A model generated the notes under the pieces. The model was not told where the DNA came from, searched no databases, and saw nothing but the letters and a program-made list of their open reading frames with translations. A stretch of 61,839 nt of DNA from the IMG/VR virus record IMGVR_UViG_3300029566_000017. One strand, given 5' to 3'. Each line of letters opens with the position of its first letter. Position 1 is the first letter of the stretch. The translations under genes and the position numbers were made by a program. This stretch comes from a virus. This document shows positions 2,943 to 61,839 of this stretch, piece after piece.

Positions 2943-3289
2943 GTTTTACCTCTCCCTTCATACAAATTTTGCCAAAAAACGCTGAAAAACCTCTTTAATA
3001 TTTAGCTTATAAGCAACTTTTTGATGCTTCCACTTATATTTATATTAGTAAAAATTAAATGCGCATATAAGCTAAATATGAAGCTCTGATAAGATTTTTA
3101 AACTATAAAAATAGTAATATAAACTGTATAAAAACACTGGCTTGAAAAGCAACCTGGAATTTAATGTTCAGACTGTTTTTCAAGCCTTTTTTTATTTTAA
3201 AAAGCACAAAAGCAGGCTTTAAGCCTGCTAGTGATTTTTTAACAGGCTAGGGAAGTAGTCTGTTACTGAATTCGCCTTATTGTTTTTGG

Positions 3290-4144
3290 TTACAAGCATC
3301 TTTGATTCCCAATGATTACGCTTGTAAGCTGTTTGCCGTCTGGCGTGTATTTGAGTTGGAAGCTTTGACGAACAGTATTGCCGAAACCGTTTTTGGATTC
3401 TACCCACGATTGGACAATAATTTCTTTTGGATTTTTTGCTGCTTTCCAATCACTGTACCAACCAAATTCAGCACTGTCCGGGTATTTTAAAAATCGTTTT
3501 ACATCTTCTCGCGCAAACGTGAGCAAATCCGATTCATGTTCAATGACAAAATCATATTTGCCTAAAACTGCTTTTCCGTCTACAAACATATCATAATTAT
3601 CATGACGAATAGCAGTTATCTTGTTGTCTGTGAGATAGATGATAACATTTACAATGCCGTCATCTGCGCAACGATAACCTTTTGTTTTCTGATTGTCTTT
3701 ATAGCCATCAAGCATTTCATCATGTTTAATTTTGAAGTTATCGGAAAATCTCATATCTGTTATGAGGATTTTTTCTAAAGAATTTGCTGCTTCAACTGGC
3801 AGACCGGTAACATCGCTAATATTTTTAGAAAATCTATCTTGCTCGATTTTCTTTCCCTGGGACTGTTTAGTTGTATTTGAAGCAACGTTTAATGATGAAC
3901 TATTGGAAGAGAAAGTTTGATAGCAAAAGAATAACGTGATTACGCTAAACAAAATCAATAGCTTCTTCTGCTTAGATTTTTCTTTTGCATCTGTAGCTCG
4001 AGAAAAATTCTTGTAGAAATTATAGGTAAACCATGCGAATATCAGTGTTAAATAATGTCCGCCAGTCATTCCAGCAGCACCAGCTACTGCTAAAACTCCG
4101 CATACGATTAATAGTCTTTGCCAGTTTTTCATTTTAGTGTCCAT
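3290..4144 (-). CDS. Membrane protein with three predicted TM segments and a C-terminal extracytoplasmic domain. Lysogeny-associated accessory gene.
   Basis: Hydrophobic N-terminal helices. It overlaps the upstream gene by 16 nt and sits between int and the repressor. Confidence 0.6.
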   Translation of the reverse strand: MDTKMKNWQRLLIVCGVLAVAGAAGMTGGHYLTLIFAWFTYNFYKNFSRATDAKEKSKQKKLLILFSVITLFFCYQTFSSNSSSLNVASNTTKQSQGKKIEQDRFSKNISDVTGLPVEAANSLEKILITDMRFSDNFKIKHDEMLDGYKDNQKTKGYRCADDGIVNVIIYLTDNKITAIRHDNYDMFVDGKAVLGKYDFVIEHESDLLTFAREDVKRFLKYPDSAEFGWYSDWKAAKNPKEIIVQSWVESKNGFGNTVRQSFQLKYTPDGKQLTSVIIGNQRCL

Positions 4145-5082
4145 ATTTCCTTTTGCAGCTGTTTAAATATTGTTTTTACACCAACTTTATCATTGAAAGA
4201 AAGCGCATTTTTATAAGCGTTGAGAGCTATTAGTTTATTTCCGCAGCGATATTGAATGTCGCCTATGCAACGATAAACGTTAGCCTTTTCTTTATCCATT
4301 AATACGTCTTGTAATGACCGTTGAAGTAAAGAAAGTACGTTGGAATAATCATTGATATTTGTAGAGTCTAAATTTTTAAGATGCTTTTTAGCTGCCATAA
4401 AAGCTTTTTTCCCTACGAGTGTAGATTCCGCAAAAACAGTGTACTTGTCCTCGTCCAAAAAAATTCCGCTAATACTGTATTTGTAACCTATATTATTTGA
4501 TGAGTTAATGGTAAAAATGTTCTTGTCTGTGTCAAAACTTACTATATTATCCGCATCCGCTATCGAAGGAAATGCAGCAGCTGTTGTAGTATCGTTCCTT
4601 AAATCAATGATAACAAGATTATTTGCAAGATAGCTTGGCCCATTACAAAGACTTACAGCTGCAAACAATCCGTTTTCCGAAAGAATAGATAGCATAATAT
4701 TTAATGGAAATTCATTTTGATAAATCAATTCACCGTCCAAAAATTTTATTGTTATTCTTCCACATAAAGCATCCCTGTTTAGCCATTCCTCTAACAAGAA
4801 ATATCCGTTGTCTGCGATGAAAGCTGTGTACAGATTTACACAACGGTGCCCACACGTTAGCAATCGCTCAGACTTGGCATCATATACATAATAATCATTT
4901 TGTCCCCACATTATTCTATAATGACCATTTGGCGAAAGTCTTGAATATAATAATATGGCTGCATAATGTTTGCCCCACTTTACAACGCAATTGTCAGTTA
5001 ACAATTCCTGCTTTGTTTTGATTGGATATTCTAGCACTTCGTACCGACTCCTTTCGATATATACGAAAAAGAGGACGGACAT
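4129..5082 (-). CDS. Hypothetical protein, beta-rich with a TPR-like C-terminus. Lysogeny-associated accessory gene.
   Basis: Long ORF on the same strand as int and cI. No recognisable catalytic motif. Confidence 0.6.
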   Translation of the reverse strand: MSVLFFVYIERSRYEVLEYPIKTKQELLTDNCVVKWGKHYAAILLYSRLSPNGHYRIMWGQNDYYVYDAKSERLLTCGHRCVNLYTAFIADNGYFLLEEWLNRDALCGRITIKFLDGELIYQNEFPLNIMLSILSENGLFAAVSLCNGPSYLANNLVIIDLRNDTTTAAAFPSIADADNIVSFDTDKNIFTINSSNNIGYKYSISGIFLDEDKYTVFAESTLVGKKAFMAAKKHLKNLDSTNINDYSNVLSLLQRSLQDVLMDKEKANVYRCIGDIQYRCGNKLIALNAYKNALSFNDKVGVKTIFKQLQKEIWTLK

Positions 5083-5759: not shown

Positions 5760-5943
5760 TATACACCTCAATTTTAAAAAAAATAAGCGAAAAAACACTT
5801 TACTTTTATAACTACATCTGTTATAATATAACTATAAAAATTAAACTAAAAAACGCTATAAAAATTAAACGCTCAGAAAAACGCTTTATTTTTATAACTA
5901 TTCTATCACGTTTTATTTTTAAAATCAAGAAAGGAGAGAATTT
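5760..5943. promoter_or_regulatory. Divergent switch region between cI-like and cro-like genes. It holds the palindrome TTATAACtacatctGTTATAA and three AAACGCT direct repeats.
   Basis: AT-rich 184-bp intergenic region with inverted and direct repeats, as in phage operator regions. Confidence 0.5.
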
Positions 5944-10417: not shown

Positions 10418-10642
10418 ATGGACGCTAAAGAGCTTACGAGAATCACTGAAAGTGCAAATCGTGATAAAGATAAGAGATATTTTACGACAATAGTAAATTT
10501 CTATATCAATATGTATCATGACAGCGGTGAGGTTTATTATCTGCATAAAGCTATTGCCGAAATCAAAGCAAAAATCAAAAAAGAAGGCGGCGAAATTTTC
10601 TGCCAGGACAATCCGTTAAAGAGAAAGGAACAAAAAGCATGA
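10418..10642 (+). CDS. Hypothetical protein
   Basis: RBS GGAGGGA before the ATG. Confidence 0.5.
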   Translation: MDAKELTRITESANRDKDKRYFTTIVNFYINMYHDSGEVYYLHKAIAEIKAKIKKEGGEIFCQDNPLKRKEQKA

Positions 10643-11049
10643 ACAAAATCATTTTATTAGGAAGATTAACAAAAGACCCGGAGGTAAGATACACTTCTAC
10701 AAGCAAGGTTGTTGCTCAGTTCACGCTTGCTGTGGACAGACCTTATTCCAAAGACAAACAGCGTGAAGCGGACTTTATTCCTGTGGTTATCTGGGGTAAA
10801 CAGGCTGAAATCTGTGGCAATTATCTTAGTAAGGGACAGCGTGTATTAGTTGAAGGCAGACTGCAAATTCGCAGCTATGACGCTAAAGACGGTCAAAAGA
10901 AATATGTAACCGAGGTTATCGCAGAGCATTTTGAATTCATTGAGCGTAGAGAGCAAGGCGGCGAATCTCAGCAGAAACCGGGAGAAGAAAGCCAGGACTT
11001 CCAAGGTTTTGGCAGCGCAGTACCTTTTAATGAGGAAATTCCGTTTTAA
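10639..11049 (+). CDS. ssb: Single-stranded DNA-binding protein
   Basis: OB-fold SSB signature (MNKIILLGRLTKDPEVRYT...IVIWGKQAE...) and an acidic C-terminal tail ending EEIPF. Confidence 0.9.
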   Translation: MNKIILLGRLTKDPEVRYTSTSKVVAQFTLAVDRPYSKDKQREADFIPVVIWGKQAEICGNYLSKGQRVLVEGRLQIRSYDAKDGQKKYVTEVIAEHFEFIERREQGGESQQKPGEESQDFQGFGSAVPFNEEIPF

Positions 11050-21617: not shown

Positions 21618-21664
21618 AAAAACTCACCTTTTATAAAGAAAACTCTTTACAAAAGGTGAGTTTT
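21618..21664. terminator. 14-bp perfect hairpin AAAACTCACCTTTT...AAAAGGTGAGTTTT followed by a T-run
   Basis: Inverted repeat seen directly. The -35 box of promoter P1 lies in its loop. Confidence 0.55.
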
Positions 21665-21674
21665 ATAGTATAAT
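21646..21674 (+). promoter_or_regulatory. Promoter P1, TTTACA-17 nt-TATAAT. First copy of the repeated promoter-leader cassette.
   Basis: Consensus -35 and -10 boxes with 17-nt spacing. The downstream leader hairpin GTAGG...CCTAC and RBS GAAAGGAAGTCG are shared with 26686-26760. Confidence 0.55.
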
Positions 21675-21722
21675 ATAAGTGTAGGGAAGATAGAGTAACC
21701 TACAAGAAAGGAAGTCGTAAAA

Positions 21723-21899: not shown

Positions 21900-21962
21900 A
21901 AGCTGATGACAAGGGCAATAGCCCTTGTAAAGCTGGCAGGCAGACAGTTCAAACCCTGTGCC
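21898..21962 (+). ncRNA. Candidate structured RNA element, copy A: two hairpins, CUGAUGA-CAAGGGC-AAUA-GCCCUUG-UAAAGCU-GGC(AG)ACAG-UUCAAACC-CUGUGCC
   Basis: About 65 nt, 75% identical to 22647-22711. Every difference in the stems is compensatory. Confidence 0.45.
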
Positions 21963-22648: not shown

Positions 22649-22711
22649 AAGCTGATGACAGGAGCTTAAGCTCCTGTAAAGCTACCGGGCAGAAGGTTCA
22701 AAGTCCTTGCC
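22647..22711 (+). ncRNA. Candidate structured RNA element, copy B: CUGAUGA-CAGGAGC-UUAA-GCUCCUG-UAAAGCU-GGC(AG)AAGG-UUCAAAGU-CCUUGCC
   Basis: Paralogue of 21898-21962 with compensatory substitutions in both stems. Confidence 0.45.
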
Positions 22712-23838: not shown

Positions 23839-23901
23839 ATAAAAGAAAGAACCAGCGTACACCGAAAGGTGTGCGCTGGAAAAAAGATTGGAGTGAAAGT
23901 C

Positions 23902-24495
23902 ATGTGTAAAGTAGCAGATAAAAGTTACAAAGAGTTATGCGAAGCGTTGCTCGGAAAAGAAGCTTATAAGGTTTCTGAACTAACGGCACAGAAATTGTAT
24001 CGACTGGAAGATACCGACGAGCTGAAAGCATATGGATTAGACAAACAGAAAGCAGAAGCGTTCCTGTGTGGTGTAGAGTTAGGCAAAAGAGCTTTCACCG
24101 AAACCAAAGCTGAGGAAAAAAGATACTGCTGTGCTCCGCAAGACTTAGCTGAATATATGATGCCGAAGCTGCGGTATTTAAATCATGAAGAATTCTGGGT
24201 AATTGCAGCAGACAGCAAGAACAGAATAATTGAGGCAAGAGCTATACTGAAAGGAACGCTAACTAACTGTTATGTTCATCCTAGAGAGATTTTCAAGTAT
24301 GCCATCATGAAAAATGCTGCCGCAATTTTTGTAGCACATAATCATCCTTCAGGTCTTGCAACACCTAGCGCTGACGATAAAAAGTTAACCAGGGATATTG
24401 TTAAAGCCGGGGCAATAATGGGAATACCTTGCTATGATCATATCATTATAGGTGACGGCAGTTATTACAGTTTCCAGGAAGATGAACAAATGTAA
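23902..24495 (+). CDS. radC: RadC-like JAB/MPN domain protein
   Basis: JAMM motif HNHPSG...S.DD and a RadC-like N-terminal region. Confidence 0.8.
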   Translation: MCKVADKSYKELCEALLGKEAYKVSELTAQKLYRLEDTDELKAYGLDKQKAEAFLCGVELGKRAFTETKAEEKRYCCAPQDLAEYMMPKLRYLNHEEFWVIAADSKNRIIEARAILKGTLTNCYVHPREIFKYAIMKNAAAIFVAHNHPSGLATPSADDKKLTRDIVKAGAIMGIPCYDHIIIGDGSYYSFQEDEQM

Positions 24496-24508
24496 GGAGG
24501 AAAGAAAA

Positions 24509-24793
24509 ATGAACGCTTATGAAATTATGTACGTTATGCGCCCGGAGCAGGAAATAGTCGAGGATGTTATCTTGAAGTTCAATAACTTAATCGTTTCTAA
24601 TGGTGGCGTAGTTGAAAAGACAGAACGCTGGGGAGAAAGAAGGATGCCTTACGTGATTCAGGACTACGAGAACGGTATTTATGTCCTGGTTACGTTTCAT
24701 GCAAGCAAGAGGTGTGTACTCGAGCTTCACAAAGCAATGGAGATTACCGAAGAAGTGCTCCGGCATATGATTATCAGAAAGGGGGTATGCTAA
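24509..24793 (+). CDS. rpsF: Ribosomal protein bS6 homologue
   Basis: It aligns along the full length of E. coli S6 from memory. The query is MNAYEIMYVMRPEQ...ERWGERRMPY...YVLV...EVLRHMIIRK and E. coli has MRHYEIVFMVHPDQ...DWGRRQLAY...YVLM...AVIRSMVMRT. RBS AAGGAGG at 8 nt. Confidence 0.65.
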   Translation: MNAYEIMYVMRPEQEIVEDVILKFNNLIVSNGGVVEKTERWGERRMPYVIQDYENGIYVLVTFHASKRCVLELHKAMEITEEVLRHMIIRKGVC

Positions 24794-25071: not shown

Positions 25072-25665
25072 ATGGCTAATATCTGTTTCAATGACATTAC
25101 AATGGTTGGAGATAAAACAATACTGCAAAGGCTGCGAGATGATATTGAACGTTACCTAGATGAAAATGATGGCAGCATTTATAGATACGGTAATGAGCTT
25201 TACCCTGGCAGTAACTATGAAGGATGGTTCGACGATGTTGGAGAAGTAGCTAAAGCCAACGAAGAAGAATATTTCTTGCGGTTTACCGTAGACACCAAAT
25301 GGACCCCGGCAATGGACTTTTTCGTAAGACTTGCAAAAGATAAAGGCTTAAAACTTTACTATGCTGCCGAAGAACCTGGCTGCGAGCTTTATCAAACGAA
25401 TGATGTTAACGGTGAGTTCTACGATGAAAGATATGTCTTGTATTGCAGCTGGGGCGAAATAACCTATTATAGTTCAAAGGAAGATTTAGTTGACGGAATA
25501 GCGTTTATGTTCAAAAGACAAGGTTATAAGGTTTTCAACAAAGAAAGCGCAATGGAATGCAGCATAAAGGAACTTGAAAAAATCGGCAGAATATTCCTGG
25601 TAGACGGAACTAACACATGGTTTGACATAGGAGAATTTGAAATAGTTCCTACCGATGAGCAATAG
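25072..25665 (+). CDS. Hypothetical protein
   Basis: RBS GGAGGTG before the ATG. Confidence 0.5.
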   Translation: MANICFNDITMVGDKTILQRLRDDIERYLDENDGSIYRYGNELYPGSNYEGWFDDVGEVAKANEEEYFLRFTVDTKWTPAMDFFVRLAKDKGLKLYYAAEEPGCELYQTNDVNGEFYDERYVLYCSWGEITYYSSKEDLVDGIAFMFKRQGYKVFNKESAMECSIKELEKIGRIFLVDGTNTWFDIGEFEIVPTDEQ

Positions 25666-26320
25666 AAAGGTAGTGGTTAACGTGAAAACATTGTATTTTG
25701 AAGGTGCTGGATGGGAAAAGGCAGAGCGCAGCATCAACACCATAGGCAACTGCCGTGTTAGAACAGCATTTCACCTCGATAACGGCAAGGGCGTTTATCT
25801 TGAAATTGTTTGCGGTGAAATGCTTGGCGAAAGAAAGAAACTTTATGGCGGCTTACAGTATGTAGGCTTCGTAGACTTCTTATTCTACATCACGGACGAA
25901 GAGCCGAACGATGACTGCAATAAGTATAAATTACCCGGTATGCGTAACACTCATTTTGCTTATGACTTCGATTCGATTCTTGATTTTGTGAATAGCCTGG
26001 GAGCGTCGTTTGATAAAATATGTGTGCTGCCAAACCTTGCCGGATACAGAGTACATTCAGATAATAGGGCAAAGCAATACAACTATGCTGATGAGTTTAC
26101 GCTAGACTGGGAGGTTATAAAGAGAGCGAAAGAAATTCACGAATACTTTTACCAGCTGGAGCAATCAGAAGGCAAGAAGTTCCCTAACTTATCTCTGTAC
26201 AATGACGAAGGCAACAAGACAAAGCTTTACTTGATCAGGCATTATAACGGCTATAATAAGAAATGGCTCATTGATGCGTCAAGCGATTCGTGGTTAAAAA
26301 CGATGATTGAAGTATCTTAA
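25655..26320 (+). CDS. Hypothetical protein
   Basis: ORF. Confidence 0.5.
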   Translation: MSNRKVVVNVKTLYFEGAGWEKAERSINTIGNCRVRTAFHLDNGKGVYLEIVCGEMLGERKKLYGGLQYVGFVDFLFYITDEEPNDDCNKYKLPGMRNTHFAYDFDSILDFVNSLGASFDKICVLPNLAGYRVHSDNRAKQYNYADEFTLDWEVIKRAKEIHEYFYQLEQSEGKKFPNLSLYNDEGNKTKLYLIRHYNGYNKKWLIDASSDSWLKTMIEVS

Positions 26321-26321
26321 C

Positions 26322-26357
26322 AAAAAGCCTGCGGGAAATCTCGCAGGCAATATTTTT
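26322..26357. terminator. Rho-independent terminator (AAAAAGCCTGCG...CGCAGGCAATATTTTT)
   Basis: Stem CCTGCG/CGCAGG followed by a T-run. Confidence 0.6.
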
Positions 26358-26432: not shown

Positions 26433-26666
26433 ATGTCAATAGAAAACAAAATCAAGGTATTAATCGCTTCAACAGGAAAAAACCAGGCTACATTAGCTAG
26501 GGAAATGGGCATTACGCCAATGTCCCTGAACTACAAGGTTAAAAAATGCAAATCACTTAAGCTTCTGCTGGAGCTTGCAACTGCCTGTGACTTTGAGGTA
26601 GTTCTGCGCAAGCGTGACGGCAGTATTGAGTATGAGGTAACTAGAGAAGATTTAGAAGAAAACTAA
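26433..26666 (+). CDS. Small HTH DNA-binding protein
   Basis: HTH-like segment NQATLAREMGITPMSLNYKV. RBS AAGGTGGTG. Confidence 0.5.
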   Translation: MSIENKIKVLIASTGKNQATLAREMGITPMSLNYKVKKCKSLKLLLELATACDFEVVLRKRDGSIEYEVTREDLEEN

Positions 26667-26685
26667 CATTTCATAAAGAAAACTC

Positions 26686-26714
26686 TTTACAAAAGCAGAG
26701 AAATACAGTATAAT
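26686..26714 (+). promoter_or_regulatory. Promoter P2, TTTACA-17 nt-TATAAT. Second copy of the promoter-leader cassette.
   Basis: A 90-bp region near-identical to 21640-21722. Confidence 0.55.
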
Positions 26715-26762
26715 ATAATTGTAGGGAAGATAGAAAGCCTACAAGAAAGGAAGTCGGTTATA

Positions 26763-28590: not shown

Positions 28591-28610
28591 AAATATAACT
28601 AATTATTTTT

Positions 28611-28639
28611 GAAAAAACACTTTACAAATAAACAAAAAT
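28611..28639 (+). promoter_or_regulatory. Promoter P3, TTTACA-17 nt-TATAAT. Third and most diverged copy of the cassette.
   Basis: Shares CTTTACAAA...GTAGTATAATATAAGT with P1 and P2. Confidence 0.5.
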
Positions 28640-28675
28640 GTAGTATAATATAAGTATAGAAAGGAGGTACAAAAC

Positions 28676-29228: not shown

Positions 29229-29290
29229 TTTTATTGGACAGTGTAAAAAAAGCACTGTCCTTTTTTATTGTAAAAAGATGGAGGTACATC

Positions 29291-29782
29291 ATGGATTTAA
29301 GAAACAAAATTACATTAATGGCGTTATCAGACATTACGCCGTATGAAAACAACCCAAGAAACAACGAAGAAGCTGTTGAAAAGGTTGCCAACTCCATTAA
29401 AGAGTTCGGCTTTAATCAGCCTATTGTAGTTGACAAAGATAATGTTATCATTGTTGGTCATACACGCTATCTTGCTGCTCAGGAGTTAGGGTTAACTGAA
29501 GCTCCGGTAATTGTTGCTGAAAACTTATCAGAAGAACAGGCGAGGGCTTATCGCCTAGCGGATAACAAAACCGGGGAACTTGCTGGCTGGGATTTTGAAA
29601 AACTGGCGTTGGAGCTGGAACAAGTAGAAAGTATTGATATGGGTGAGTTCGGTTTTGAAACACATGATTTAGATAGCGGCAACATTGATGAGTTCTTTGA
29701 GGATGCTAACACCTCATCCGAGCATGAGCAGAAGCCTAAAACTGTAACTTGTCCACATTGCGGCGAAGAATTTGAAATATGA
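29291..29782 (+). CDS. ParB-like nuclease domain protein
   Basis: ParB/Srx motifs PYENNPR and IVVDKDNVIIVGHTRY. C-terminal CPHCG zinc ribbon. Confidence 0.8.
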   Translation: MDLRNKITLMALSDITPYENNPRNNEEAVEKVANSIKEFGFNQPIVVDKDNVIIVGHTRYLAAQELGLTEAPVIVAENLSEEQARAYRLADNKTGELAGWDFEKLALELEQVESIDMGEFGFETHDLDSGNIDEFFEDANTSSEHEQKPKTVTCPHCGEEFEI

Positions 29783-29922
29783 AACTGTATTTAGCTGGCG
29801 GTATGAGCTACCGTGAGATGCTATTTGGGGGGCAATAATGGATTTATATCTTGCAATAGGCGGTGGACAATGGAATAAATATGTTGCTCCTACGTTAAAA
29901 GAAATGGGAGGGGTAAAACGTA

Positions 29923-30762
29923 ATGAAAATCTTTCTGGCAGCAGCCGGTGGCGGATGGAACTGGTTCCAAAGAGCATTTTGGCCAGATCAAGAGAACATA
30001 AAAGCAAAGGAGAGCATCCCTAAAATGAAAATTCATCTTGCAGGGGGAGAAAGCAGAGCCGAAATTTTGGCTGAAGAATCAAAAGTTCTTCGACCGTATA
30101 TCCTTGAATCTTTCCTTATGACAACGCCGAAATCAGTACAATACTTGCCGCTGTATAGTGATTATATGCTCGATTCTGGAGCATTCAGCATGTTGATGGG
30201 CAATGCGAAAAAAGTTGATTTAAAAACTTATGTAGATTCTTATATTGCGTATATCCAAAAATACAATGTGCAGAAATTTTTTGAGCTTGACATTGACCCT
30301 ATTGTAGGCTACGAAGAAGTTTTGAAAATCAGAAAATACATTGCTGAAAAAGTTGGAAGGTCACCGATTCCTGTATGGCATAAAAGCCGTGGCATGAAAG
30401 ATTTTATTGAAATGTGCAAGCGGTATAAGTATGTTGCAATAGGCGGTTATGTTAGCGGCGAATTTACAAAAGGTGAAGTTGAAAAATTTCCTTTGCTTAT
30501 CAAAGAAGCACACTCGCATGGAGCTAAAATTCACGGTTTGGGATTTACTCAATTAAAATATTTGCCGCGCTTTCATTTTGACAGTGTAGATTCTACTGCG
30601 TGGGTATCTGGAAATAGATTCGGGGCAGTATATAAGTTCGATGGAAAAACGATGGTTAAATATAATAAGCCTACTGGTATGCGAGTAAAAAATAAAGAAG
30701 TAGCTATTAATAATTTTGTAGAATGGGTAAAATTCCAAGAGTATGCAAAGACTCATTTTTGA
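29923..30762 (+). CDS. dpdA: DpdA-like (tRNA-guanine transglycosylase-like) DNA 7-deazaguanine transglycosylase. The assignment rests mainly on synteny.
   Basis: About 280 aa, immediately upstream of queC, queD, queE and folE, the canonical phage dpdA context. The start is uncertain; an alternative is the MKIHLAGG codon near 30025. Confidence 0.55.
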   Translation: MKIFLAAAGGGWNWFQRAFWPDQENIKAKESIPKMKIHLAGGESRAEILAEESKVLRPYILESFLMTTPKSVQYLPLYSDYMLDSGAFSMLMGNAKKVDLKTYVDSYIAYIQKYNVQKFFELDIDPIVGYEEVLKIRKYIAEKVGRSPIPVWHKSRGMKDFIEMCKRYKYVAIGGYVSGEFTKGEVEKFPLLIKEAHSHGAKIHGLGFTQLKYLPRFHFDSVDSTAWVSGNRFGAVYKFDGKTMVKYNKPTGMRVKNKEVAINNFVEWVKFQEYAKTHF

Positions 30763-30778
30763 AAAGAGGTAATAACAA

Positions 30779-31468
30779 ATGAAAAAAGCAGTTGTTTTAT
30801 TAAGCGGCGGTGTAGATAGCACTACTTGTTTAGCTATTGCAGTCAAAAAATATGGTACAGAAAAAGTTTTGGCCTTATCTGCTTTTTATGGACAAAGGCA
30901 CAAAAGAGAAATTGAAAGCGCAAAAAAAGTCGCTGCTTTTTATGGCGTAGACCATAAAGAAACTGATTTGTCGCTGGCGTTCTCTATGAGCGATTGCCCA
31001 TTGCTGGCTAAAAGCAAGCATGATATTAAACATGAATCCTATGCAGAACAACTTAAAGAGCTTGGCGGTGAAGGTACTGTTGATACCTATGTGCCGTTCA
31101 GAAACGGTCTGTTACTTTCTTATGCGGCCGCTGTTGCTGTAAGCGTAGAAGCAGAAGCTATTTATTATGGTGCTCATGCTGACGATGCAGCAGGGCGAGC
31201 ATATCCTGATTGTACGCCTGAATTCGTTGATTATATGAATAAAGCGATTTTTGAGGGTAGCGGACGAACCACACATCTTGAAGCACCGCTTATCAATCTA
31301 AATAAAGCAGGCGTTGTTAAGCTTGGATTAGAGCTTAACGCACCATATCAGTTTACATGGAGCTGCTACGAGGGCGGAGAAAAGCCTTGCGGAACTTGCG
31401 GAACGTGTATTGACCGTGCGATGGCATTTGAAGCTAACGGCGTGAAAGACCCTGCGTTGGAGGATTAA
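30779..31468 (+). CDS. queC: 7-cyano-7-deazaguanine synthase
   Basis: PP-loop SGGVDS. C-terminal CGTCGTC zinc motif. Confidence 0.85.
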   Translation: MKKAVVLLSGGVDSTTCLAIAVKKYGTEKVLALSAFYGQRHKREIESAKKVAAFYGVDHKETDLSLAFSMSDCPLLAKSKHDIKHESYAEQLKELGGEGTVDTYVPFRNGLLLSYAAAVAVSVEAEAIYYGAHADDAAGRAYPDCTPEFVDYMNKAIFEGSGRTTHLEAPLINLNKAGVVKLGLELNAPYQFTWSCYEGGEKPCGTCGTCIDRAMAFEANGVKDPALED

Positions 31469-31469
31469 T

Positions 31470-31799
31470 ATGTATACAGTAACAAAACGATTAGAAATTT
31501 CGGCAGCACACCAACTTTCTTTAAATTATGAAAGTAAGTGCAAAAATTTACATGGACATAATTGGATTATCTGCGTAACTTGCCAAAGCGAAACCTTAGA
31601 CGCTAACGGCATGGTAGTAGATTTCAAGCATATTAAAAACCTTGTTTCTGATATGCTTGACCATCAATATTTAAACGACGTTTTACAATGCAATCCGACA
31701 GCAGAAAACATTGCTCGTTGGATTTGCGAAAAAGTCCCGCACTGCGTTAAGGTGTCAGTGCAGGAAAGCGAAGGGAATGTTGCCGTGTATGAAATATAA
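31470..31799 (+). CDS. queD: 6-carboxy-5,6,7,8-tetrahydropterin synthase
   Basis: Motif CKNLHGHNW. Confidence 0.85.
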   Translation: MYTVTKRLEISAAHQLSLNYESKCKNLHGHNWIICVTCQSETLDANGMVVDFKHIKNLVSDMLDHQYLNDVLQCNPTAENIARWICEKVPHCVKVSVQESEGNVAVYEI

Positions 31800-32442
31800 T
31801 GTAGTGGAAATTTTTAAAAGTATCGAAGGAGAAGGAAAGCGAACTGGCTATCCTTCTGTATTTGTTCGTTTGGCTGGCTGCAACCTGCGTTGTAGCTATT
31901 GCGATACAATCTATGCTCAACAATTCGCAGATGCTGCCAGCAGTTATAATGAGCAGGAGCTTATGGATGAGATAAGCGAGTATAACTGCAAGCGTGTAAC
32001 TATTACCGGCGGTGAACCACTCCTGCACGACTTGCAGCCACTTCTTGAACTGCTGCACAAAGCCAAATATGAGGTAAATATCGAAACAAATGGTGCTGTA
32101 CCGCTTTACAAAAAAAGGTTAAGCGGTATTTTTTATACCATTGATTACAAGTGCGGCACGTCTGGCGAATCTAATAAAATGCTAATGGATAATTACAAGC
32201 ACCTTAACGCAAAGGACGTTATAAAATTTGTAGTTGGCAGCAAAGAAGATTTTAACGACGTAGACCGGGTGCTTGACTATTGCAAAAAAATCAAATGCCA
32301 GGCAAAAGTTTACATCTCGCCAGTGTGGGACGCAATCGAACCTGCGGAGCTTGTAGAGTACGCAAAAAATTCGCTGTATAACATCTGCGTACAAGTGCAG
32401 CTTCATAAAATTATTTGGGATAAAGATAAAAGGGGCGTGTAA
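31789..32442 (+). CDS. queE: 7-carboxy-7-deazaguanine synthase (radical SAM)
   Basis: Start MKYNVVEIFKSIEGEG. Cluster CNLRCSYCDT. Confidence 0.85.
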   Translation: MKYNVVEIFKSIEGEGKRTGYPSVFVRLAGCNLRCSYCDTIYAQQFADAASSYNEQELMDEISEYNCKRVTITGGEPLLHDLQPLLELLHKAKYEVNIETNGAVPLYKKRLSGIFYTIDYKCGTSGESNKMLMDNYKHLNAKDVIKFVVGSKEDFNDVDRVLDYCKKIKCQAKVYISPVWDAIEPAELVEYAKNSLYNICVQVQLHKIIWDKDKRGV

Positions 32443-32443
32443 C

Positions 32444-33010
32444 ATGGACGCTAAAAAGCTAGAACAAGCCGCAAGGCTTATTATTGAGGGCATCGGCGAA
32501 AACCCGAACCGAGAGGGACTTCTTGAAACTCCTAAACGGTTCGCAAAAATGCTAATGGAGCAATTAGAGTACGCAAGTGTCAGCAACGATGAAATCGCAA
32601 AGAAATTCAACAAGTGCTTTTCCTGTGATAACGATGATATGGTGGTGTTAAAAGGCATCAACTGCTTTTCTTATTGCGAGCACCATATCGCACTCATGTA
32701 TAACATGACTGTTGATGTAGGCTATATCCCTAACGGTAAAGTTATCGGCATTAGCAAGATTGCACGTATTGCTGACGCAGTAACAAAACGTCTGCAAATT
32801 CAAGAGCGTATCGGCAAGGAAATTCGCGACATTCTTACAAAAATTTTAGGGACAGAGGACGTTATTGTAGTTATTCAGGGCGAACACTCTTGTATGACTG
32901 CTAGAGGAATTAAAAAGCCAGGAGTAAAAACAAAGACTGCTTCTTGTGGTGGACAATTCTTGGTAAACGCAGAGCTGCGAAAAGAATTTTACCTTGTAGA
33001 CAGCAAATAA
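32444..33010 (+). CDS. folE: GTP cyclohydrolase I
   Basis: Motifs CEHHI and GEHSCMTARG. Confidence 0.85.
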   Translation: MDAKKLEQAARLIIEGIGENPNREGLLETPKRFAKMLMEQLEYASVSNDEIAKKFNKCFSCDNDDMVVLKGINCFSYCEHHIALMYNMTVDVGYIPNGKVIGISKIARIADAVTKRLQIQERIGKEIRDILTKILGTEDVIVVIQGEHSCMTARGIKKPGVKTKTASCGGQFLVNAELRKEFYLVDSK

Positions 33011-61437: not shown

Positions 61438-61839
61438 ATGGAAGGTACAAACATTGTTCCGGTAATGGATATGAATCGAAACAACAACTATGGTGACTGC
61501 TGGGGCGGCGGTATGTGGTTTATGTGGATTATTGTCCTGTTTGCTCTTATGGGTGGCTGGGGCGGTAATTGGAATAACCGTGGTAACATGGGTGCTGAAA
61601 TTTTTGCTAATGGCAGCATGACACGTGATCAGATTGCAGACCAATTTTCCATGCAGGATATTAAAGACGGTATTCGTGGTGTGCAGAATGGCTTATGTGA
61701 TGGTTTTTACGCTCAGAACAGCACTATGCTGAATGGTTTTAACGGAGTACAGCGTGACATTATGCAGACTGGCTATCAGCTTGGTAGCGAGATTGCACAA
61801 AATCGTTTCGCTGCTCAACAATGCTGCTGCGAGCAAAAA
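61438..61839 (+). CDS. Hypothetical membrane-associated Gly/Trp/Asn-rich protein, 5' part. It continues as 1-444 across the junction.
   Basis: RBS GGAGGTGA. TM segment FMWIIVLFALMGGW. The frame is contiguous with 22-444. Confidence 0.55.
   Translation, partial: MEGTNIVPVMDMNRNNNYGDCWGGGMWFMWIIVLFALMGGWGGNWNNRGNMGAEIFANGSMTRDQIADQFSMQDIKDGIRGVQNGLCDGFYAQNSTMLNGFNGVQRDIMQTGYQLGSEIAQNRFAAQQCCCEQK

Follow-up and report, generated by a model that had tools for sequence, protein, structure and literature searches.

Why should a temperate phage carry a gene for ribosomal protein bS6, and what might its product do in the infected cell? The question is raised by an open reading frame that follows a radC-like gene in IMG/VR virus record IMGVR_UViG_3300029566_000017, of which we analyzed the whole stretch of 61,839 nucleotides (the window, to which positions refer unless another locus is named; Table 1). 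Virus-encoded ribosomal proteins are a known class that is mechanistically almost unexplored, and for bS6 the class has so far comprised five unassigned contigs.

Table 1. Features of the S6 locus and related elements in the window
Feature	Position	Strand	Basis
SSB gene of the phage	10639..11049	+	PF00436
Consensus-like promoter TTTACA-17-TATAAT	21646..21674	+	11/12 consensus positions; putative function
RadC-like JAB-domain gene	23869..24495	+	PF04002, E=1.6e-44; TIGR00608, 145.7 bits
Shine-Dalgarno AAGGAGG	24494..24500	+	Letters of the sequence; 8 nt 5' of the S6 ATG
Phage bS6 gene (ATG start, 94 aa + stop)	24509..24793	+	PF01250, TIGR00166, AF2/Foldseek
Codons 44-49 (R-R-M-P-Y-V), equivalent to the E. 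coli A-loop RQLAYP	24638..24655	+	Alignment to E. coli and host S6
Terminator-like hairpin	26327..26348	+	9-bp GC-rich stem, then T-rich tail

A bS6-family gene in a Phascolarctobacterium phage

The product of the open reading frame (MNAYEIMYVMRPEQ...RHMIIRKGVC) is a genuine bS6-family protein. It matched the Pfam Ribosomal_S6 profile PF01250 over residues 4 to 90 (model positions 2 to 90 of 90) with an E value of 2.6e-26 and 92.1 bits, well over the cutoff of 27, and the NCBIfam S6 equivalog TIGR00166 with 78.4 bits (cutoff, 42.9). Pfam scores of the phage proteins (87 to 92 bits) were 20 to 25 bits lower than those of the cellular relatives (110 to 117 bits), and no PHROGs family matched the ORF. 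The AF2 model (pLDDT, 84.6) predicts a single ferredoxin-like domain with a beta-alpha-beta-beta-alpha-beta fold (strands 2-10, 34-42, 57-65, and 83-90; helices 14-30 and 67-79). When this model was compared with the PDB by Foldseek, the top matches were all bS6 chains of solved ribosomes (TM, 0.77 to 0.84), the best being B. subtilis bS6 (9fy1_f; E=1.2e-10; TM, 0.83); 1g1x_A aligned with a TM of 0.80. MAFFT alignment with an E. coli rpsF product paired MNAYEIMYVMRPEQ with MRHYEIVFMVHPDQ, RWGERRMPY with DWGRRQLAY, and EVLRHMIIRK with AVIRSMVMRT. Peptides spanning RRMPYVIQDYENGIYVLVTFHASK, for example, are phage specific. A shift in net charge, considered as a mark of lost RNA binding, was small (-2.2 versus -3.4) and uninformative.

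The genome in which this gene resides is a complete, circularly assembled temperate phage genome. The ends of the window are identical over an exact terminal repeat of 99 nt (1-99 and 61741-61839), which implies a circular assembly and a genome of 61,740 bp. Genes for a tyrosine integrase and an HTH repressor lie on the minus strand; the window further holds replication and recombination genes (ERF, replisome organizer, DnaC-like loader, SSB, and RecU), a long series of small early/middle genes, and structural and packaging genes (TerL, portal, major capsid protein, sheath-like protein, tape measure, and baseplate/fiber). The only ribosomal protein gene in it is that for bS6. Hundreds of metagenomic contigs carry the exact integrase and the gene that comes last before attP; some of these contigs are circular and phage sized (~61.7 kb), and others are 100 to 266 kb long and contain the phage as a prophage. 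Beyond the phage end, six integrated copies continue into lepB, ylqF, rnhB, yraN, comM, and the trp operon. The flanking YlqF has an identical counterpart annotated from Phascolarctobacterium succinatutens, and the flanking RNase HII shares a 90% cluster with P. succinatutens proteins. These flanks identify the host as P. succinatutens, a diderm Firmicute (Negativicutes, Acidaminococcaceae). No tRNA was found at the attachment site.

The S6 gene follows the replication/recombination module and precedes the packaging genes, a position consistent with early/middle expression. Its neighbor, the radC-like gene, encodes 208 aa from a GTG; in relatives it is called as 197 aa from the ATG at 23902. 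Only 13 nt separate the radC stop from the S6 ATG, a gap found in 46 of 62 related loci, and the Shine-Dalgarno sequence of S6 overlaps the TAA stop of radC (24493-24495). This spacing and overlap suggest cotranscription and, possibly, translational coupling. The upstream promoter, which recurs at 26686-26714 and 28621-28649, likely drives an operon that includes radC and S6, and the downstream hairpin probably ends it; together they would place both genes in one operon of ~4.7 kb.

In outline, these results agree with what the initial annotation had read from the letters. It had named the 94-aa ORF a bS6 homologue, which the PF01250 search that it proposed as a check, TIGR00166, and the predicted fold all support, and the three S6 alignment blocks that it gave were all reproduced by MAFFT. 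The strong ribosome-binding site and the preceding radC-like gene that it described are both present, its placement of S6 in the early/middle region accords with the gene order, and its temperate Firmicute phage is borne out by the integrase and repressor genes and by integrated copies among genes of a Negativicute (Bacillota).

Several other elements were noted in and around this operon. Two matches to the Twister-P5 ribozyme (RF02684; gathering threshold, 37.6 bits) occur on the plus strand at 21901-21959 (44.7 bits) and 22650-22708 (48.3 bits), in intergenic gaps of the S6 operon, 1.8 to 2.6 kb before the S6 gene. They share 74% identity (repeat family D6), and by self-cleavage they could process the transcript of radC and S6. 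An element of ~76 nt, consisting of a 14-bp hairpin and the TTTACA-17-TATAAT promoter, is repeated at 21619-21694, 26659-26734, 28594-28669, and 5789-5840 (repeat families D1 and D10). Successive early/middle transcription units probably begin at these elements, which may also serve as terminators or operators. Just ahead of TerL, the plus strand carries a module (29234-33010) that encodes a ParB_N protein, an unassigned and possibly DpdA-like protein of 279 aa, QueC, a radical-SAM QueE-like protein, and GTP cyclohydrolase I, a gene set that suggests 7-deazaguanine DNA modification. The version of this module in relatives includes PTPS/QueD too, and related phages swap it for PIG-L/WbqC/TAGT genes or for three ParB_N genes and a methyltransferase. 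The early region of some relatives (L005/L007, at about 4595-4819) holds an Acb2/Tad1-hairpin gene, resembling anti-CBASS/Thoeris sponges, and in one prophage (L153, 15137-16312) an IS110-family transposase has inserted beside the repressor/cro region.

Relatives, origin, and selection

A word-indexed search of 5.8 billion proteins returned 34 S6 clusters. Those at 76 to 96% identity lie after radC in related phage contigs, in which the surrounding small genes and DNA-modification modules vary; those at 56 to 62% identity are cellular rpsF in its canonical rpsF-ssb-rpsR operon. IMG/VR contains 51 viral contigs with this S6 (76 to 99% identity; mostly 45 to 66 kb) and 51 with a close RadC, and the two sets are identical. 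For the neighborhood counts we used 62 S6-bearing viral and metagenomic loci, 59 copies falling in the phage clade. Directly upstream of S6 stands radC in 55 of the 62 (gap of 12 to 15 nt in 54 and of 54 nt in 1), and in 5 others an ORF of 127 aa is interposed. This ORF (2631-3014 in L120, also present in L112, L121, L122, and L132) overlaps the S6 start by 14 nt and has no Pfam match. The remaining two loci, L009 and L144, lie outside the main phage clade.

Within the phage clade, S6 is intact at 94 aa in 58 of 59 copies. The exception is an IMG/VR contig (L143, 3001-3849) in which a deletion fuses S6 codon ~60 in frame to a homologue of the window gene at 25655-26320, removing the S6 C terminus (the 3' third of the gene) and two intervening genes. 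That such a variant exists implies that S6 is not strictly essential to the phage.

The two outlying loci differ in kind. L009, a divergent related phage, encodes a more cell-like S6 of 85 aa without the bS18-contact loop (residues 44-52), followed directly by a 67-aa C-terminal fragment of RadC (2100-2553), so that the gene order is reversed; the pair looks like decay. In the same locus, a sequence encoding 'MRQGKRKEDVKM' is duplicated before two consecutive genes, hinting at recombination at junctions that contain ribosome-binding sites. L144, an unrelated IMG/VR contig of 15.5 kb, carries a different S6 (2992-3303; 103 aa; 39% identical) between genes for a HipA-like kinase and a Rad52-like annealase, with no RadC, which indicates an independent viral acquisition of bS6.

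Among 50,697 GenBank phage records searched by tblastn, no member of the phage clade was found: all 22 matches were below 38% identity. As cultured relatives these matches were rejected, many being short fragments with cellular rpsF (H15, for instance, encodes E. coli S6). The GTDB species representatives, for their part, hold no S6 more than 64% identical to the phage protein, and the 64% match (L070) is a truncated cellular rpsF; they thus offered no prophage copy, and the host was identified from the prophage flanks.

Where did the gene come from? A comparison with 185,579 species-representative genomes ranked Phascolarctobacterium rpsF first (58 to 62%), followed by Succiniclasticum and other Acidaminococcaceae (49 to 54%) and other Bacillota (38 to 45%). 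An exhaustive HMMER scan of 1.84 billion representatives returned none closer than 56% and none with an E value below 1e-30. In a neighbor-joining tree of 83 distinct sequences (300 bootstraps), the phage S6 clade was monophyletic in 300/300 replicates, on a long stem, and grouped with the cellular Negativicutes in 273/300. The cellular Negativicutes excluded phage S6 in just 12 to 18 of 300 replicates, and the phage clade is therefore nested within them. The S6 of L009 joined the main phage clade in 93/300 replicates, a value that bears on whether there was a single or a double capture. From these comparisons we infer that the phage gene came from the rpsF of an Acidaminococcaceae (Phascolarctobacterium-like) host.

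The initial annotation had put forward a phylogeny against host rpsF as the means of telling a recent host capture from a viral lineage, and the tree speaks for an old viral lineage. Recent capture is ruled out by the long-stem clade and by the identities: P. succinatutens S6 is 59 to 61% identical to the phage clade, as against 76% to Succiniclasticum S6, 70% to that of other Acidaminococcales, and 52% to that of Pelotomaculum. In other words, by sequence identity the phage protein has since diverged almost as far as the S6 of a different class.

The phage SSB gene gives the same taxonomic ranking as S6: its best matches among Phascolarctobacterium ssb are at 67 to 72% (genus mean, 68%), and Succiniclasticum ssb is at 57%. 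In the host, ssb is located directly downstream of rpsF in the rpsF-ssb-rpsR operon, and a joint capture of rpsF and ssb, later separated, is possible. A metagenomic protein of 167 aa (P0081) joins the N-terminal OB fold of SSB to the C-terminal three quarters of a Phascolarctobacterium-type S6; this chimera arose either as an artefact of assembly or by rearrangement within rpsF-ssb.

To gauge selection, we used pairwise NG86 estimates on unique coding sequences (44 of phage S6, 37 of cellular rpsF, and 48 of phage RadC). The phage S6 clade showed a median dN/dS of 0.13 over 946 pairs and a ratio of sums of 0.132; cellular Phascolarctobacterium rpsF gave a ratio of sums of 0.125, and phage RadC one of 0.10. 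The S6 value was stable over a dS range from 0.05 to more than 1. Judged by these ratios, the phage S6 and the cellular gene are at present under equally strong purifying selection. Taken together, the long stem and the low dN/dS within the clade point to a burst of change after capture that was followed by stabilizing selection.

The bS18-contact loop and what the protein may do

Column statistics over 61 distinct cellular S6 sequences were used to judge which positions are invariant in cells. The phage protein keeps Y4, E5, P12, W41, G42, Y48, G56, Y58, and the motif E82-VLRHM-87. At cell-invariant sites, by comparison, the substitutions L46M, A47P, D74H, and D81E are fixed in the phage proteins, and K43E, K71L, K78E, and a one-residue deletion after P12 are further changes. 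In E. coli, the A-loop (residues 44-49) forms the S6:S18 interface, with R44, Y48, P49, and R85 (Babina et al. 2015; PMC4647458), and it is as a heterodimer that S6 and S18 bind both rRNA and the leader of their own mRNA (PMC4647458). Over this region, residue numbers are the same in the phage protein and in mature E. coli S6; the phage reads RRMPYV, the host RRLAYE, and E. coli RQLAYP. The contact residues R44, Y48, and R85 are retained; alanine is present at position 47 in 100% of the 61 cellular sequences and proline in 100% of the phage clade, in which M46 is conserved at 95% and Y48 at 100%. Because none of the sampled cells departs from alanine at position 47, it is conceivable that A47P weakened or repurposed the bS18 interface instead of tuning it.

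The reading that we favor, with a probability of roughly 0.45, is that in lytic growth the phage S6 forms a pair with host bS18 and becomes part of the 30S platform or perturbs it. Under this proposal, the protein would be transcribed with radC in an early/middle lytic operon. Having kept the predicted S6 fold and R44, Y48, and R85 but with a contact loop remodeled in a phage-specific manner, it could heterodimerize with host bS18 in competition with host bS6. During assembly, new 30S subunits might take up the resulting S6-phi:S18 pair in their platform, close to the anti-Shine-Dalgarno region, and the altered platform might then bias ribosome assembly or initiation in the phage's favor. It is the combination of a retained fold and retained contacts with a remodeled loop that leads us to propose the heterodimer. 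As for its consequences, the platform trio of bS6, bS18, and bS21 borders the 3' tail of 16S rRNA and the anti-Shine-Dalgarno sequence (PMC7797042), and because of this location a variant bS6 could plausibly affect initiation. Some considerations weigh against this proposal. Mizuno et al. (PMC6375957) stress ribosomal proteins that exchange readily, and bS6 is not one of these; it would enter only newly assembled subunits. The lower Pfam score, the A47P replacement with its possible effect on the bS18 interface, and the loss of the S6 3' third in L143 also tell against it.

Possibly, the protein acts off the ribosome instead, as a regulator or decoy. Bound to the phage S6, bS18 could be sequestered, which would slow host ribosome assembly, or the S6:S18 complex could act on the rpsF-ssb-rpsR leader and shut down synthesis of S6, SSB, and S18. 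In E. coli, a leader mimicking the rRNA site does allow the S6:S18 complex to repress rpsF translation (PMC4647458), the phage-specific changes are concentrated in the bS18-contact loop, and the phage's own SSB would make it independent of host ssb. However, an Rfam search of the sequences upstream of P. succinatutens rpsF and of the phage S6 found no rpsF leader and no structured RNA, and E. coli S6 overexpressed alone gave no repression of a reporter (PMC4647458). On balance we regard this explanation as somewhat unlikely. A more ambitious proposal combines elements of both: a re-engineered S18-binding loop, fixed in the lineage, would capture bS18 and give rise either to phage-specific 30S platforms with altered initiation or to a titration of bS18 and the rpsF operon that stops host ribosome biogenesis. 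We consider it unlikely in this specific form; if true, it would be the first mechanistically defined exploitation of the S6:S18 assembly node by a virus.

The close association with radC invites another explanation that has nothing to do with the ribosome, namely, that RadC and the S6-like protein form a two-gene module, for instance in counter-defense or in DNA or RNA processing, in which the S6 fold serves as an RNA- or protein-binding subunit. The 13-nt spacing with a ribosome-binding site over the radC stop, the adjacency in 55 of 62 loci, the complete co-occurrence in IMG/VR, and the finding that S6 and a RadC fragment adjoin, in opposite order, in the divergent phage L009 are all in line with such a module. 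These co-occurrences are confined to one closely related lineage, though, and the linkage may simply have been inherited. Moreover, the 127-aa ORF separates the two genes in five genomes, the unrelated S6 carrier L144 has no RadC, and phages with RadC but without S6 are common. We hold a RadC partnership to be quite improbable.

A further suggestion is that S6 is a functionless passenger, an rpsF that came along with a useful adjacent ssb and merely persists. The phage S6 and SSB are indeed both closest to Phascolarctobacterium genes that are adjacent in the host, and the deletion in L143 and the loss of the bS18 loop from the L009 protein, which looks like decay, also speak for it. Yet a dN/dS of 0.13, equal to that of the cellular gene, disfavors this view, and 58 of 59 copies have stayed intact across genomes separated by a dS of more than 1. 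In addition, 13.5 kb separate S6 from ssb in the phage genome, and the position after radC has been conserved while the flanking genes were swapped. A passenger is therefore highly improbable. Finally, the notion that a host rpsF was misassembled or misbinned into a viral contig, to which the many GenBank "phage" S6 records that look like host contamination lend some color, has a negligible probability and is refuted by the recurrence of the gene at one site in over 50 phage contigs that are independent, circular or near-complete, and derived from many samples, by the terminal repeat, by an identity of only ~60% to any cellular S6, by the absence of ssb-rpsR neighbors, and by prophage copies with host flanks.

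Comparison with known systems

The initial annotation had called virus-encoded bS6 rare but reported. Indeed, bS6 has been described in five uncultivated viral contigs, all host associated and two of them predicted to be temperate (Mizuno et al. 2019, Nat Commun 10:752; PMC6375957), so the category is not new. Like those contigs, the present ones are phage contigs from host-associated (animal) metagenomes that carry a PF01250 gene, and as in most of the cases of Mizuno et al. bS6 is the sole ribosomal protein gene of the genome. The five contigs possibly belong to the same lineage as this phage. They were presented without host assignment, pN/pS, or phylogeny, whereas for the lineage described here a host is named, at least 51 IMG/VR genomes are available, selection has been measured, the donor clade and the divergence from it are defined, and the changes are mapped to the bS18 loop.

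With cellular Phascolarctobacterium and Acidaminococcaceae bS6, the phage protein shares a length of 93 to 94 aa, the fold, the universally conserved residues, and an equal degree of purifying selection. Cellular rpsF belongs to an rpsF-ssb-rpsR or rpsF-priB-rpsR operon, the former in the relatives L010 to L012 and L070; the phage gene is found outside such an operon, following radC and being followed by phage ORFs. The operon setting characterizes the cellular gene rather than the family of proteins.

The phage genes for bS21 and bL12, such as the bS21 gene of Pelagibacter phage HTVC008M, offer a second parallel, each being a single small ribosomal gene that is kept under purifying selection. 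Carriers of bS21 are mostly lytic aquatic phages, unlike the phage studied here, which is temperate and comes from the gut. The proteins differ too: bS21 and bL12 are loosely bound, exchangeable, and experimentally found in the 70S ribosome, whereas bS6 is an assembly protein that forms a heterodimer with bS18 and, in the 30S platform, is bound with it to the h22-h23 region of 16S rRNA. Incorporation into ribosomes was shown only for bS21 and bL12 in the survey cited above (Mizuno et al. 2019; PMC6375957).

A third point of comparison is the autoregulatory S6:S18 complex (Matelska 2013; Babina 2015), which relies on the same S6 loop 44-49 and R85 and offers an off-ribosome route for an extra S6. 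This autoregulation has been described for cellular S6 together with S18 rather than for S6 alone, and its leader motif was not found by Rfam in this host or phage.

In conclusion, this lineage provides a tractable system, with a named host from a cultivable genus and a phage that is temperate, abundant, and complete. Its bS6 is as constrained as that of the host and yet ~40% diverged, with changes that point to the bS18 interface. The suggestion that phages may retune ribosomes thereby becomes experimentally approachable, through pairing with bS18 and entry into the 30S subunit. Should neither occur, a ribosomal protein fold would have been recruited to a new viral role.
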